In this document: one piece after another, positions 9,774 through 51,171 of the stretch | Layout: each line of letters starts with the position of its first letter | How positions within the stretch are numbered: the first letter of the stretch is position 1 | Source of the DNA: Escherichia phage HEMP5 | Direction: 5' to 3' (one strand) | Length of the DNA stretch: 64,000 nucleotides | Sequence record: OR424388.1 | Made by a program: the position numbers and the translations under genes | The notes under the pieces: model-generated | The model's input: the letters and a program-made list of their open reading frames with translations, nothing else | What the model was told of the DNA's origin: nothing | Database searches by the model: none

Positions 9774-9810
9774 TTTATTCTCCAAATCCGTATCAGTAGT
9801 TGATAGTTGT

Positions 9811-9840
9811 ATAGTACCATGGAAGAACATTCTTGTAAAC
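9811..9840 (-). promoter_or_regulatory. T4-type early promoter (member of the conserved promoter-leader cassette family)
   Basis: Minus strand TTTTCACAAAACTGTTTACA-N17-GGTACTATACAACTATCAACTACTGATACGGATTTGGAGAATAAAATG. Confidence 0.8.
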
Positions 9841-9920
9841 AGTTTTGTGAAAATTTTTTAGTGAATTCTAAATGTCCAGAATCATCTGTTTTTCATAAGT
9901 ATAGATTTATATTACTTGTA

Positions 9921-9944
9921 TGAAAAAGGGACCCGGAGGTCCCT
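9921..9944 (-). terminator. Intrinsic terminator after gene 43
   Basis: Minus RNA AGGGACC-UCCG-GGUCCCU followed by UUUUUC, 13 nt after the gene 43 stop. Confidence 0.75.
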
Positions 9945-9956
9945 AGATTTATTCTA

Positions 9957-12653
9957 TCAGCCAAACAGGAAGTCTAACGAAGCTTTTTCTTCATAGTCCA
10001 TACCAGCTGATTCACACATGCCCGCAAGCGGTTTAACAAACGATTTTTGGAACAAAGTTGAGTAGTCAATCCAAGACAGTACGTCAGAACGAATTTCTTT
10101 TGGAAGTTCTGTACCCGACGGCCAAGCAATGCATTTGTCACCAAATGGATTTCCTTCACGCAATGGAAGAACCATTACTTTATTTCCATCCAAAATTGGA
10201 GCTACACCTAAACCGCTAACAGCTCGACGATAAGTTAGCACACCACGAATATGGAACGGACATTTAAATCCTGGCCAACCTTTATCATCATATTTCGCTA
10301 TATCGTTCGCAGTTTTTACTTCAGCAATAACTTTATAGTCGAGTTGACGATATTCTTTCTCGAAGTTCTTGTAATATTCTTGGACAGACTCTTCACCTTC
10401 CTGAAGAATACGACGAATACTTTCTTCGAGAGCTTCTTGGACCGCTTTGGGCGTTGAACTCTGCTGAGTTTCCATACCCATGATTTTTAGATGCGGTTCA
10501 GCAAATCGCTTATCTTCCATATCATAAACGTTCAGAGCATAACGCTTTTTCGCTTTCCAAAATCCACCAACGCCCTTTGAACCAAGTGGAGGGCAAGAAA
10601 TAGCTTCACGGTCCATATGCATCAGATGCTCGCGGTTATTCATATAATCACATAACTCACGATATGCAACATCAATCATAGGTTCCATCTTTTTCTTACC
10701 GAACTGATTCATGAATTCAACTAAATCGTTCTGCTCTTTGAATCGGTCAAGACCAACTTTTTCAATAACTTTATCTACACAAACATATACCGAATCAGTA
10801 TCACCTGCTGCGATGAAATCTTCGCCATTGGTTCCGCATACTTTATTCAGATATTCATTAATTTTACGAGCAATCCACTGAATACCAACTTGGCCGAAAA
10901 TTGTGATAGCAGTAGCATTTCGTAAATCATAGTAACGGAAATGAATATTACCAAGAGCACCATAAAGACTGTTAATAAGAATTTTACGGTTCAGCTGATT
11001 TGTATTAGCAAGTGTAGCCGCTTTTTCACATTCCTCAATCAGACTATTGAGAACAGATTCAGTATAATTCGATAGTTCATTTAAGAAATCATCACTGAAC
11101 TTAACATATCGTTCAACTTCAGGTTTAGTTGAACAAGACCCTGCGCCTTTCATAATAATCTTTTTAATAGCTTCGGCATTCATTTCTTCAGCGAACATTT
11201 TCTTTTTCCAATCTTTACGCTGGAAAAATACTTTAGCGATTTCCTTTGGAATGATACCTTCTTGATGCTTATCATACATCCATCCATTCGGAGAACAAGA
11301 ATATTCATCACTCGGTTTAGGAGCTGTTCCTGCGATATATTCATGAATTGGATGAACTTTAAACTGACCACGAATAGTCTCAGGACTAATGTTAACCTGA
11401 CGAATAATGCTAGGATACAGAGACGTCAAGTCAAAACTCATAATATATCGACGAGCAATTGGTTTAGGTTCAAATACAAATGCACCTGGAAAACTTTGTT
11501 TAACGTGCGAACCTTGTTGAGGAATAACCTTATGTTCACCTTTCAATGAGTTAAAAATAATAGCATCCCAGGTTTTAATAGGACTCATTACACCAGAAAA
11601 AGGCATTTTAGCGTAATAAGACATACTTAAAACTAGATCGATAAACCCGCGAATTTTATCAATTGCTTGAACTGATTCTACGTCAATGATGTTATAACTA
11701 ATATATCGTTGATGATTAGTCTCACGAAGTTTATTAATAGGACCGTCGTATGGTAATTTGCCCTTTTTAGTTTCATGCTGAGCAACTGATTCCAAAGAGA
11801 ATGACGGCAAATTAGTAAATGCGAATTTCTTATACAAATCTAAATAATCAAGAATAGATACGCCATCAATAGAATAAATTTCTTTGCTGCCGTACATATT
11901 TTGAATTAGTTTAGATTTTACCCGACCGATTGGAGAGAAGCGTTTCATACTGCGTTCACCGAGAACCATTTTAACGCGATTCATGATATACGGAACGTCA
12001 AATCCCTCAATATTCCAACCAGTAAAAATAGCAGGTCGTTTCTGTTCCCAAAGATTGATATATTCCATGAGCATATCGCGCTCATTATCGAATGGCATAT
12101 AAATTACTCGGTCAAGAATTTCTTGAGGAACTTCATCACCACCTTCACAGTCAAGCTTAGCAGCTAACTTTGCATCCCATTTTGATACTGAACCGTACAT
12201 TGAATTCAAAAGGTCGAAAACATAAAAACGATCATCAATTGAATCGTAATGAGTGATAGCATCAATTTCATATTCAGCTTTCATTGGGTCAGGAAATTTA
12301 TCACCAGTAACCTCAATGTCACAGTTAGCTACACGAACAAATTTTCGGTCATAAACAATTTCCGAACCATATGTATCACTGATATAAGCGAGTTTAAAAT
12401 CGTTCATACCGAGAGCTTCGAGACCGATGTCTTCCATTCGTTTCATCCAATCTCGAGCATCTTTCATTGATGGAAATTTTTGAGGAGCACAATTTTTACC
12501 ATAGATGTCTTTGTATTTTGACTCTTCCTTACAATGCCTAAACATAGTCGGAAGATATTCTACTTCACGAGTACGTTCCTTTCCGTTTTCATCAATATAA
12601 CGTTCAACAATGTTATTTCCGACTGTTTCAATAGAGATATAAAATTCTTTCAT
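9957..12653 (-). CDS. 43: DNA polymerase (family B), gene 43
   Basis: 898 aa, MKEFYISIETVGNNIVERYIDENGKERTREVEY... Contains the DxxSLYPS and YGDTDS polymerase motifs. Confidence 0.98.
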   Translation of the reverse strand: MKEFYISIETVGNNIVERYIDENGKERTREVEYLPTMFRHCKEESKYKDIYGKNCAPQKFPSMKDARDWMKRMEDIGLEALGMNDFKLAYISDTYGSEIVYDRKFVRVANCDIEVTGDKFPDPMKAEYEIDAITHYDSIDDRFYVFDLLNSMYGSVSKWDAKLAAKLDCEGGDEVPQEILDRVIYMPFDNERDMLMEYINLWEQKRPAIFTGWNIEGFDVPYIMNRVKMVLGERSMKRFSPIGRVKSKLIQNMYGSKEIYSIDGVSILDYLDLYKKFAFTNLPSFSLESVAQHETKKGKLPYDGPINKLRETNHQRYISYNIIDVESVQAIDKIRGFIDLVLSMSYYAKMPFSGVMSPIKTWDAIIFNSLKGEHKVIPQQGSHVKQSFPGAFVFEPKPIARRYIMSFDLTSLYPSIIRQVNISPETIRGQFKVHPIHEYIAGTAPKPSDEYSCSPNGWMYDKHQEGIIPKEIAKVFFQRKDWKKKMFAEEMNAEAIKKIIMKGAGSCSTKPEVERYVKFSDDFLNELSNYTESVLNSLIEECEKAATLANTNQLNRKILINSLYGALGNIHFRYYDLRNATAITIFGQVGIQWIARKINEYLNKVCGTNGEDFIAAGDTDSVYVCVDKVIEKVGLDRFKEQNDLVEFMNQFGKKKMEPMIDVAYRELCDYMNNREHLMHMDREAISCPPLGSKGVGGFWKAKKRYALNVYDMEDKRFAEPHLKIMGMETQQSSTPKAVQEALEESIRRILQEGEESVQEYYKNFEKEYRQLDYKVIAEVKTANDIAKYDDKGWPGFKCPFHIRGVLTYRRAVSGLGVAPILDGNKVMVLPLREGNPFGDKCIAWPSGTELPKEIRSDVLSWIDYSTLFQKSFVKPLAGMCESAGMDYEEKASLDFLFG

Positions 12654-12656
12654 AGA

Positions 12657-12692
12657 TATTCCTTAGTTTATAGCCCGAGTTATTAGGCTCTT
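12657..12692 (-). promoter_or_regulatory. Gene 43 translational operator (gp43 autoregulation hairpin)
   Basis: Minus RNA GAGCCUAAUAACUCGGGCUAUAAACUAAGGAAUAUCUAUG. Hairpin AGCCU-AAUAACUC-GGGCU lies at 12672-12689, with the same 8-nt loop as the classical T4 operator. Confidence 0.85.
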
Positions 12693-50414: not shown

Positions 50415-50456
50415 AGTATTTCCTTAGGTTAATTAAGATTTAAAATCCATGAGATA

Positions 50457-50633
50457 TTATACTCCGGATAGGTTGTAAACTATTTCAACATCGCCTTTTG
50501 CTGCTTTATAACCTTCAGCCCAAGATACAACCGAGTTTTTATCCGAAGATTCAAATTCTGGCATTGGGCTTTCGCCAATGTTCACGCAGTATGTTTCTTC
50601 ATTTTCGTCGAACCAAATAATTAAAGTAGTCAT
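50457..50633 (-). CDS. Small acidic protein (58 aa)
   Basis: Hand translation MTTLIIWFDENEETYCVNIGESPMPEFESSDKNSVVSWAEGYKAAKGDVEIVYNLSGV, after a GGAGAAATAA Shine-Dalgarno. Confidence 0.55.
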   Translation of the reverse strand: MTTLIIWFDENEETYCVNIGESPMPEFESSDKNSVVSWAEGYKAAKGDVEIVYNLSGV

Positions 50634-50701
50634 TTATTTCTCCGTTTCTGTATTTGTTTTGATAAGTCTATAATAACACCGTCCTTGGTGTTTGTACACA
50701 A

Positions 50702-50965
50702 TTATTTCATATTATTGAAATATTCTTCTGCGATTTCGTCGTTATCATGGTAAACTTTAGAAGACAGTTTAACATAACTTTCAGCAGTGAACATGTTAAT
50801 CACAACCTTTACAGTATACCACTGACCATCTTCATTACCCATTACTGCGTAAGTTTCAAACATCGGATGGTCAGGACCGATAACTTTAATATCATTCACT
50901 GTACGACCAAAATCTTCTGAAACACATTTCATAAAGAAGTTGAACAGTTCACCGTAATTATCCAT
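50702..50965 (-). CDS. Hypothetical protein (87 aa)
   Basis: ORF track 50702..50977. The ATG at 50965 follows GGAGAATAAA from the promoter-leader cassette (MDNYGELFNFFMKCVSEDFG...). Confidence 0.72.
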   Translation of the reverse strand: MDNYGELFNFFMKCVSEDFGRTVNDIKVIGPDHPMFETYAVMGNEDGQWYTVKVVINMFTAESYVKLSSKVYHDNDEIAEEYFNNMK

Positions 50966-51008
50966 TTTATTCTCCAAGTTGTTTTCTGTATCAGTAGTTG
51001 ATAGTTGT

Positions 51009-51038
51009 ATAGTACCATGGAAGAACGGGGATGTAAAC
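51009..51038 (-). promoter_or_regulatory. T4-type early promoter (cassette family)
   Basis: Minus strand TTTTTCACAAAACGGTTTACA-N17-GGTACTATACAACTATCAACTACTGATACAG. Confidence 0.8.
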
Positions 51039-51171
51039 CGTTTTGTGAAAAATTTTTTAAAAAGTTTTGGGGGAATTCTAGGGCAGGGAGGGGCAATTAA
51101 AGGATAGGATAATATATTATAAAGGATAGAAACTAAATGATGCCTAGAGAGGCCCAGAAAGGTCTAGATGC

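Follow-up and report, generated by a model that had tools for sequence, protein, structure and literature searches.

A family of early promoter-leader cassettes in Escherichia phage HEMP5 and its probable part in short-patch exchange

Results

Four promoter-leader cassettes with a common core

The genome of Escherichia phage HEMP5, analysed here as a stretch of 64,000 nucleotides (nt) from sequence record OR424388.1 (hereafter the window), carries four related promoter-leader cassettes, which lie upstream of an open reading frame (ORF) of 78 amino acids (aa) at the imm.1 locus and of nrdC.8, nrdC.10 and e.8. Our reading, to which we give a probability of about 0.8, is that these cassettes are strong immediate-early modules, paralogs that exchange short patches of sequence, with the core and the Shine-Dalgarno motif acting as patches for the insertion and swapping of genes. 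The feature is already known and falls within known biology: the initial annotation, which took it for one of the promoter-early-stem-loop (PeSL) cassettes proposed to mediate gene shuffling in T4-type phages, is right in kind and too general. All four loci that it proposed are present at their given positions and on the minus strand:

9774-9860, minus strand: cassette 1, ortholog of the T4 imm.1 promoter, with an A/T tract containing TTTTCACAAAA and a predicted 31-nt leader; -35 (TTTACA) at 9834-9839, -10 (TACTAT) at 9811-9816, core at 9799-9818, +1 predicted at 9804 from the hexamer positions
34902-34965, minus strand: cassette 2, promoter of nrdC.8, with the 22-nt leader TACGGAGGAACAGAAA and its A/T region inside the nrdC.9 coding sequence; -35 at 34953-34958, -10 at 34930-34935, core at 34918-34937, predicted +1 at 34923
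36335-36420, minus strand: cassette 3, promoter of nrdC.10 ("early promoter 54.4" in T4), with a 28-nt leader; -35 at 36392-36397, -10 at 36369-36374, core at 36357-36376, predicted +1 at 36362
50966-51060, minus strand: cassette 4, promoter of e.8, with a 37-nt leader; -35 at 51032-51037, -10 at 51009-51014, core at 50997-51016, predicted +1 at 51002

The window is that of a Tequatrovirus, with the T4 gene order from soc/56 to gene 6 and all prereplicative genes on the minus strand; in the two stretches searched (34000-38000, 4 kb, and 26500-34500, 8 kb), identity is 100% to Yersinia phage PYps32T and 94-99% to hundreds of Tequatrovirus genomes. In each copy the interval listed above runs from the end of the upstream A/T tract to the base preceding the ATG, and its elements follow in the order A/T-rich tract, GTTTACA, 17-bp spacer, TGG-TACTAT, short leader and GGAG-type Shine-Dalgarno sequence, with the ATG next; the leaders are 22-37 nt and the whole units 64-95 nt long. 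Each copy has the GTTTAC(A/T), the spacing of 17±1 bp and the TGn + TAnnnT that characterize T4-type early sigma-70 promoters, and each packs promoter, Shine-Dalgarno sequence and start codon into about 100 bp, as PeSL units do, with hexamers compatible with the published PST/T4 PeSL consensus TTTACW-N17-TAYWAT. The tracts resembling upstream promoter (UP) elements read AAAAA(A)TTTT(T)CACAAAA in copies 1, 3 and 4, and GAAAAAATTGTGAAAGAAGTTTCTTTTAG, inside the nrdC.9 coding sequence, in copy 2.

Each core is a copy of the 20-mer GGTACTATACAACTATCAAC; the window holds these four exact copies and no other, and 100 dinucleotide shuffles gave none. The description of the copies as near-identical holds for a core of 22-23 nt; elsewhere it does not, the pairwise identity being 64-82% over 73 nt. 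This is still well apart from the mean pairwise identity of 47% among other early-promoter pairs in the window and of 50% between the four and the others, and the four copies are a distinct sub-family, though not near-identical outside the core. The consensus as it was written, GTTTACA-N17-GGTACTATA, needs correction: searched literally it matches none of the four copies, since GTTTACA and GGTACTAT are 15 nt apart and the 17 nt are the distance between the hexamers TTTACA and TACTAT. Its remaining part describes three copies and fails for that at 34902-34965, which lacks TTTTCACAAAA and has a different leader, TACGGAGGAACAGAAAATG.

The four copies within the early-promoter family

A position-weight scan placed 18 early promoters on the minus strand of the window and none on the other; their consensus is tTTT.A.AaA.t.GTTTACat...TgTGgTAcTATa.a.cTATCAAcTA. 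This agrees with the early-promoter logos of other T4-like phages (PMC1524935) and with the organization of T4 early promoters into UP, -35, TGn and -10 elements with further consensus regions (Hinton 2010, PMC2988021). The four copies take the top scores, a ranking that is partly circular because they were among the 17 seed sequences of the scoring matrix. At 39 positions all four are invariant; 26 of these carry the majority base of the 14 other early promoters, and 13 are specific to the family, notably ACAAC between -10 and +1. Much of the similarity that had been thought to go beyond a promoter consensus is thus explained by the extended T4 early-promoter consensus together with a RegB/S1 site (see below).

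The family is also larger and more graded than the four loci. An 87-nt cassette query gave 4,310 matches in 546 phage records, typically 7-10 per genome. T4 carries the same four cassettes at the orthologous sites, upstream of imm.1, nrdC.8, nrdC.10 and e.8, and in record U76612 of T4 the region before nrdC.10 is annotated with a terminator, with -35 and -10 signals and as "early promoter 54.4", so the element has long been known as a promoter. By analogy, this one annotation of the nrdC.10 ortholog also suggests immediate-early transcription by the unmodified host polymerase.

Scans of IMG/VR and of metagenomes for the 20-mer returned 21 and 27 stretches, which form a catalogue of contexts too small for population statistics. 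The invariant block is identical in at least eight gene contexts and in many genomes, the flanks being variable. Further members outside the region covered by the window were seen in L058, a viral contig of a 169,650-bp Tequatrovirus genome, and in L083. They precede motA, a gene whose product begins MKFKFYYAKHK, and a membrane ORF (MKKII/VKAIWNVV); the last has a complete nrdC.8-type spacer and leader, and in L083 the MKFKF-type promoter stands in front of a different gene (MFTTAELKRAKAKK). An exact 20-mer at 265-284 of metagenome contig PJEL010112152.1 (L080) was set aside as a probable chance match, its surroundings being GC-rich, non-phage-like and devoid of promoter features.

Such constancy amid variable flanks could speak for an operator, or an RNA 5'-end signal, read in the invariant block from -14 to +8 (TGGTACTATACAACTATCAACT) by a phage factor, for instance one that shuts off early promoters. 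The family-specific positions with their ACAAC would fit this, and how early transcription stops has been stated to be unknown (Hinton 2010, PMC2988021). We nevertheless find this explanation very improbable: the analysis gave no candidate for a binding protein or structure, ACAAC is absent from most other early promoters of the window although these belong, by sequence, to the same temporal class, and recent common descent with exchange accounts for the identity without any extra function.

A predicted RegB/S1 site doubles as Shine-Dalgarno sequence in three leaders

Conservation is also seen at the 3' end of the cassettes, where the following sites lie:

9773-9783, minus strand: GGAGAATAAAA, Shine-Dalgarno sequence of cassette 1 and exact match to the optimal RegB/S1 target, its final A being the A of the ATG
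36334-36344, minus strand: GGAGAATAAAA, nrdC.10 Shine-Dalgarno sequence and RegB/S1 consensus, and the right-hand junction of a multi-gene insertion in contigs L004 and L006
50965-50975, minus strand: GGAGAATAAAA, e.8 Shine-Dalgarno sequence and RegB/S1 consensus

RegB cuts GGAG Shine-Dalgarno sites and thereby inactivates early mRNAs. The published RegB/S1 consensus is GGAGRAYARAA, with a T4 optimum, GGAGAAUAAAA, that is required for efficient cleavage (Durand et al. 2006, PMC1702504). On the coding strand of the window GGAGAATAAAA occurs four times (at 9783, 36344, 50975 and 54905), each time fused to an ATG, against 0.07 expected. Cassettes 1, 3 and 4 end in GGAGAATAAAA(TG), so that in early-gene intergenic leaders the exact 11-nt consensus serves as Shine-Dalgarno sequence and is predicted to be cleaved; the nrdC.8 leader (GGAGGAACAGA) deviates from the consensus, gives no match and is predicted to be base-paired. 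Because the sequence is identical to the published consensus, the 3' end of the repeat is best read as a ribosome-binding site that is also a predicted RegB site, which would explain the conserved part of the repeat that had been recorded simply as "RBS" (ribosome-binding site).

Probable exchange at the imm.1 and nrdC.10 loci

The clearest case of exchange is the imm.1 locus, where the gene directly behind the cassette differs between relatives:

9537-9773, minus strand: 78-aa ORF with a hydrophobic N-terminus (phrog_4189), between cassette 1 and imm.1

The first gene behind the cassette is imm.1 itself in T4 and RB33. A 247-bp segment with the 78-aa ORF, an ORF found in 321 phage records, stands between the cassette ATG and imm.1 in the window and in AR1, bounded by repeated ATGAAAAT. 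In RB51 an unrelated 83-aa ORF replaces it, behind a chimeric cassette in which an imm.1-type promoter half and an nrdC.8-type leader (TACGGAGGAACCGAAAATG) are joined exactly at the invariant core. Among the sampled genomes, spacers of the imm.1, e.8 or nrdC.8 type and leaders of four types were found at this locus. With three gene states downstream and with spacers and leaders in chimeric combinations, the copy at imm.1 is a hotspot.

At nrdC.10 the four complete relatives T4, RB51, RB33 and AR1 are colinear. Contig L004 has a three-gene block (ORFs of 49, 87 and 66 aa, with two extra early promoters) inserted between CTATCAA and GGAGAATAAAATG, and contig L006 has a related two-gene block at the same gene. 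Within 34000-38000, phages of the collection commonly show an insertion of about 480 bp, probably the L004-type block; one such record annotates a DUF4031 protein in this region. L006 (IMGVR_UViG_2974787500_000001) also shows, at 3455-3480, a 51-nt deletion through which the 5' half of the nrdC.11 terminator hairpin is followed directly by the end of the promoter spacer. The UP tract and -35 of the nrdC.10-type promoter are gone and the -10 is retained, which would make this a promoter knock-out variant unless the contig is misassembled. In the same contig the -10 and discriminator of the nrdC.8 cassette are replaced by the core of another promoter, the rest being kept, and one e.8 locus has an imm.1-type spacer. 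These chimeric cassettes (in RB51, in L006 and in the imm.1/e.8 spacer swaps) indicate that exchange happens within cassettes, and the crossover points observed are the -10/+1 core and the Shine-Dalgarno/ATG motif.

Diverse T4-like phages, represented by 37 viral contigs, carry nrdC.10 orthologs (61-100% protein identity), and in nearly all of them an early-promoter-like sequence lies just upstream of the gene and a GGAG- or GAG-type Shine-Dalgarno sequence before the ATG; nrdC.8 orthologs occur in the same set. Pfam searches gave no match for three of the four downstream proteins and sub-threshold P-loop/AAA matches for nrdC.10, so that its proposed identity as an ATPase is plausible and not established, with nothing above the Pfam threshold.

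The nrdC.8 and e.8 copies remain in place

The initial annotation had expected breakpoints of gene content to fall inside the cassettes and the downstream genes all to be accessory. The first expectation holds for the imm.1-locus and nrdC.10 copies and fails for the other two. The second is not supported for three of the four genes: nrdC.8, nrdC.10 and e.8 occupy the same positions in the Tequatrovirus records examined, nrdC.8 and nrdC.10 extend to more distant T4-like phages (61-79% and 67-85% protein identity), and the three genes, which are non-essential in T4, are conserved rather than variable. The copy at nrdC.8 adjoins and enters the nrdC.9 coding sequence. All Tequatrovirus-level records listed cover the 601-nt nrdC.8 junction query in full, so that no breakpoint is seen there. 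Around e.8 the relevant features are:

51177-51200, minus strand: terminator hairpin at the rnaC 3' end, AGCCCCUUCC-GAAA-GGUUGGGGCU plus U run, a recurrent upstream breakpoint
50662-50703, minus strand: next early promoter, TGTACA-N17-TATTAT, which abuts the e.8 stop codon, with its upstream edge at 50702

The block 50702-51197, e.8 with its cassette, is retained as a unit in relatives, and breakpoints recur on either side of it, at 50702 (the e.8 stop, abutting the promoter at 50698) and at 51168-51203 (the rnaC terminator).

Two variable segments were noted next to this block. RB51, RB33 and AR1 have a module of about 520 bp between rnaC and the e.8 promoter, with a late-promoter-like motif (TATAAATA) and the 157-aa ORF RB32ORF132c; it is flanked by a duplicated rnaC terminator hairpin (RB51 locus L061, 46036-46600), and the RB51 annotators recorded a "34 bp imperfect direct repeat" at this site. 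On the other side, a 58-aa ORF (50457-50633, minus strand) has its own early promoter, the TGTACA-N17-TATTAT at 50698; its slot (50430-50702) holds e.7 in T4 and a 172-aa ORF in RB51 and RB33, and is a three-state replaceable module between the e.8 stop and the e.6 start region.

To see how far breakpoints and promoters coincide across the window, we combined chained alignments to T4, RB51, RB33 and AR1 with the breakpoints of partial viral contigs, scored the gene junctions from 8.3 to 52.5 kb, counting a breakpoint when it fell at -17 to +110 nt from a start codon, and applied a Fisher test. Several results, from this test and elsewhere, weigh against our reading. Of the junctions with an early promoter 5 of 12 had a breakpoint, and of those without one 21 of 75 (odds ratio 1.8, p=0.33); before three promoter assignments were corrected the counts were 5/9 against 21/57 (p=0.12). 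Neither difference is significant, and the comparison is rough because automatic gene calling gave imperfect starts that were patched by hand and because the sample is small. Most breakpoints in the window lie at junctions without an early promoter, and homing-endonuclease genes or terminators account for many of them. Among the 498 records covering at least 80% of the junction query, every one has the nrdC.8 copy intact, and the e.8 copy was never broken in the relatives examined, its breakpoints being confined to the flanks. Copies 2 and 3 form a pair of direct repeats at a distance of 1,439 bp, and loss of the nrdC.9-nrdC.10 segment between them, with a minicircle as product, was seen in no relative examined. 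The perfect identity shared by the copies, 22-23 bp, is short for efficient homologous recombination. Finally, the start sites, RegB cleavage and masking of read-through RNA that enter the proposed mechanism are each deduced from sequence. On this evidence the cassettes are one class of junction among several.

With two copies never serving as breakpoints and no significant enrichment, one could also argue that the similarity is purely functional, selection having held the best early promoter and the best Shine-Dalgarno/RegB match at each locus with no role in shuffling. That 26 of the 39 invariant positions carry the majority base of the 14 other early promoters, and that GGAGAATAAAA is itself a functional consensus, would be expected on these grounds. 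We regard this alternative as unlikely, since long identical runs extend into the spacer, a promoter region of low information (for instance GTTCTTCCATGG, common to copies 1 and 4), whole spacer and leader types recur at other loci in other genomes, and at two loci the junctions of insertions and deletions lie exactly in the shared motifs.

The dispersal of the family over some 7-10 places per genome, and the homing-endonuclease genes found nearby in relatives, with a seg-like gene between nrdC.10 and nrdC.9 in RB51, RB33 and AR1, could suggest instead that the cassettes are autonomous mobile DNA, either a miniature transposon or a sequence that a homing endonuclease targets or carries along. 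We reject this reading as hardly credible: the copies have no terminal inverted repeats, target-site duplications or linked transposase or endonuclease, their positions in the window are orthologous to those in T4, RB51, RB33 and AR1, and the breakpoints of the seg-like insertion (35359-35385) lie outside the cassettes.

Stem-loops upstream of and within the cassettes

A hairpin immediately upstream had been described for several copies. This is so for the copy at 36335 and not for the other three. The features in question are:

36429-36448, minus strand: UUCG-loop intrinsic terminator of nrdC.11, directly upstream of the cassette 3 A/T tract, -17.7 kcal/mol
36376-36389, minus strand: palindromic spacer of cassette 3, CATAAAGCTTTATG
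9921-9944, minus strand: hairpin resembling an intrinsic terminator after gene 43, with stem AGGGACC, loop UCCG and a U run, -13.9 kcal/mol
34905-34949, minus strand: inverted repeat around the -10 and +1 of cassette 2, duplex energy -26.0 kcal/mol, z=-5.05 against shuffles

The UUCG-loop stems with U runs at 36421-36448 (-17.7 kcal/mol), 213-230 (-15.1 kcal/mol) and 40003-40018 (-10.8 kcal/mol) are real, and the first is annotated as a terminator in T4 record U76612. The hairpin at 9921-9944, which had been counted among them as directly preceding copy 1, has a UCCG loop and lies just after the gene 43 stop codon, about 80 nt upstream of the -35; it is the sole stable hairpin near that copy. 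Copy 4 has none within about 130 nt, the nearest being the rnaC terminator about 135 nt upstream of its -35. Copy 3 thus combines an adjacent UUCG terminator with a palindromic spacer and copy 2 has a stem of -26 kcal/mol between spacer and leader; an upstream hairpin is no constant part of the four copies.

In copy 2 the arms of the inverted repeat are CTGTTCCTCTGT (34938-34949) in the spacer and ACGGAGGAACAG (34905-34916) in the leader, the latter including the Shine-Dalgarno sequence. More distant T4-like relatives (67-70% identity in the nrdC.8 protein) have a different pairing, CTCCAGTAG/CTACTGGAG. The same arrangement recurs in the window: eight of the 18 early promoters, that of nrdC.8 included, have a -35/-10 spacer complementary to their own leader, in several of them to the Shine-Dalgarno sequence, so that the inverted repeat encloses -10 and +1:

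-35 at 55583, 55253, 54952, 47218, 44178, 39173, 34958 and 4120, minus strand: early promoters with spacer-leader pairing

The duplex energies of a promoter's own pair range from -13.7 to -26.0 kcal/mol, and the observed mean was reached by none of 5,000 permutations of the pairing. At the denV promoter the arms are CTCCTGTAG/CTACAGGAG in T4 and TCCTCCAAG/CTTGGAGGA in the window, complementarity being kept with different sequence. Stem-loops between or overlapping the -35 and -10 boxes have already been listed as PeSL classes (Arbiol et al. 2010, PMC2839356). Spacer-leader pairing does not serve as an account of the four cassettes together: it holds for the nrdC.8 copy, and no strong pairing is predicted for copies 1, 3 and 4. 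The denV gene (endonuclease V) itself is reduced in the window to a remnant of 33 codons (47061-47162, minus strand) behind its own early promoter (-35 at 47213-47218), compared with 138 aa in T4, and this phage is apparently without a functional pyrimidine-dimer glycosylase.

A more far-reaching proposal would combine frequent short-patch exchange at the invariant 22-nt -10/+1 core, in which promoter halves (UP, -35, spacer) and leader halves (5' untranslated region, Shine-Dalgarno/RegB site, first codons) reassort independently and new ORFs are captured, with anti-Shine-Dalgarno spacers as a general, co-varying device that limits translation to transcripts from the gene's own promoter. We put this forward tentatively, as possible and clearly less probable than our main reading.

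Discussion

Under that main reading, of exchanging immediate-early modules, host sigma-70 polymerase would bind the UP-like A/T tract, the GTTTACA of the -35 region, the 17-bp spacer and the extended -10 TGgTACTAT, and would start transcription at a site that we infer to be the A of CTATCAAC. The resulting leader of 22-37 nt would end in a GGAG-type Shine-Dalgarno sequence just 5' of the ATG. As this sequence is GGAGAAUAAAA in three copies, the same 11 nt would at first promote translation and later tag the early mRNA for inactivation, a step suggested by the published specificity of RegB. At nrdC.8, read-through RNA from upstream would hide the ribosome site, which RNA from the gene's own promoter would not. 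The likeness of the copies would come from the extended early-promoter consensus and from paralogy with continuing short-patch exchange, the core and the Shine-Dalgarno/ATG motif offering small patches of homology for the insertion, loss and swapping of genes. This last role is clear at imm.1 and appears now and then at nrdC.10; neither nrdC.8 nor the interior of the e.8 copy gave a sign of it.

The analysis confirms a textbook element and shows which members of the family act as exchange points, namely the copy at imm.1 and sometimes that at nrdC.10. As the nrdC.8 and e.8 copies are fixed, the general claim of PeSL-mediated shuffling is tempered. For annotation, the four loci are best labelled early promoters with leaders and the 78-aa ORF a variable insert. 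Anti-Shine-Dalgarno stems embedded in early promoters are a testable idea.

Comparison with known systems

The closest match is with the early promoters of T4, described as "uber" UP/-35/TGn/-10 promoters (PMC2988021; U76612), which have the same -35, spacer, TGn -10 and A/T tracts at orthologous positions. Nothing essential differs, the four copies being a tight sub-family among them (64-82% identity), and T4 lacks the 78-aa ORF that the imm.1-locus copy drives in this phage.

PeSL cassettes have been published for RB49/phi1 (Arbiol et al. 2010, PMC2839356) and for PST/T4 and nt-1/KVP40 (Comeau et al. 2014, PMC4122927), so that Yersinia relatives of T4 are among the phages covered. The four copies resemble them in having promoter, A/T tract, Shine-Dalgarno sequence and start codon within about 100 bp, so that the kind and the hexamers fit, whereas upstream or overlapping stem-loops are found in only some copies and junctions of indels or replacements lie in the cassettes at two of the four loci, the other two copies never being breakpoints. 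The crossovers seen here are in the -10/+1 core and the Shine-Dalgarno/ATG motif, whereas an AT-rich region was suggested for RB49.

The stem at nrdC.8 recalls the translational control of T4 e, soc, 49 and I-TevI by promoters inside hairpins (Uzan and Miller 2010, PMC3014915). As in those genes, the Shine-Dalgarno region at nrdC.8 and at several other early promoters of the window has its complement 5' of the -10, and at these promoters a ribosome site that is free only in transcripts from the internal promoter is predicted; e, soc, 49 and I-TevI use late promoters, whereas the promoter here is an early sigma-70 promoter.

A last parallel is the shuffling of internal-protein (IP) loci in T-even phages (Repoila et al. 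1994, cited in PMC4122927), in which conserved regulatory and N-terminal sequences surround interchangeable genes, a pattern also found in the window at 46.3-47.5 kb and 54.9-55.6 kb. The N-terminal motif corresponds to DNA repeat families D4, D6 and D7 (2475-2639, 46357-46935, 47222-47503, 54954-55187 and 55267-55524), and it is also present in the gp61.1 homolog (2475-2639, minus strand), which starts MKTYKEFIKE (T4 MKTFKEFIKE) like the IP capsid-targeting motif (MKTYQEFIAE in T4 IPII and IPIII). The IP loci share this coding, capsid-targeting peptide (MKTY/FKEF) as well as regulatory sequence, whereas the four cassettes share non-coding sequence only.

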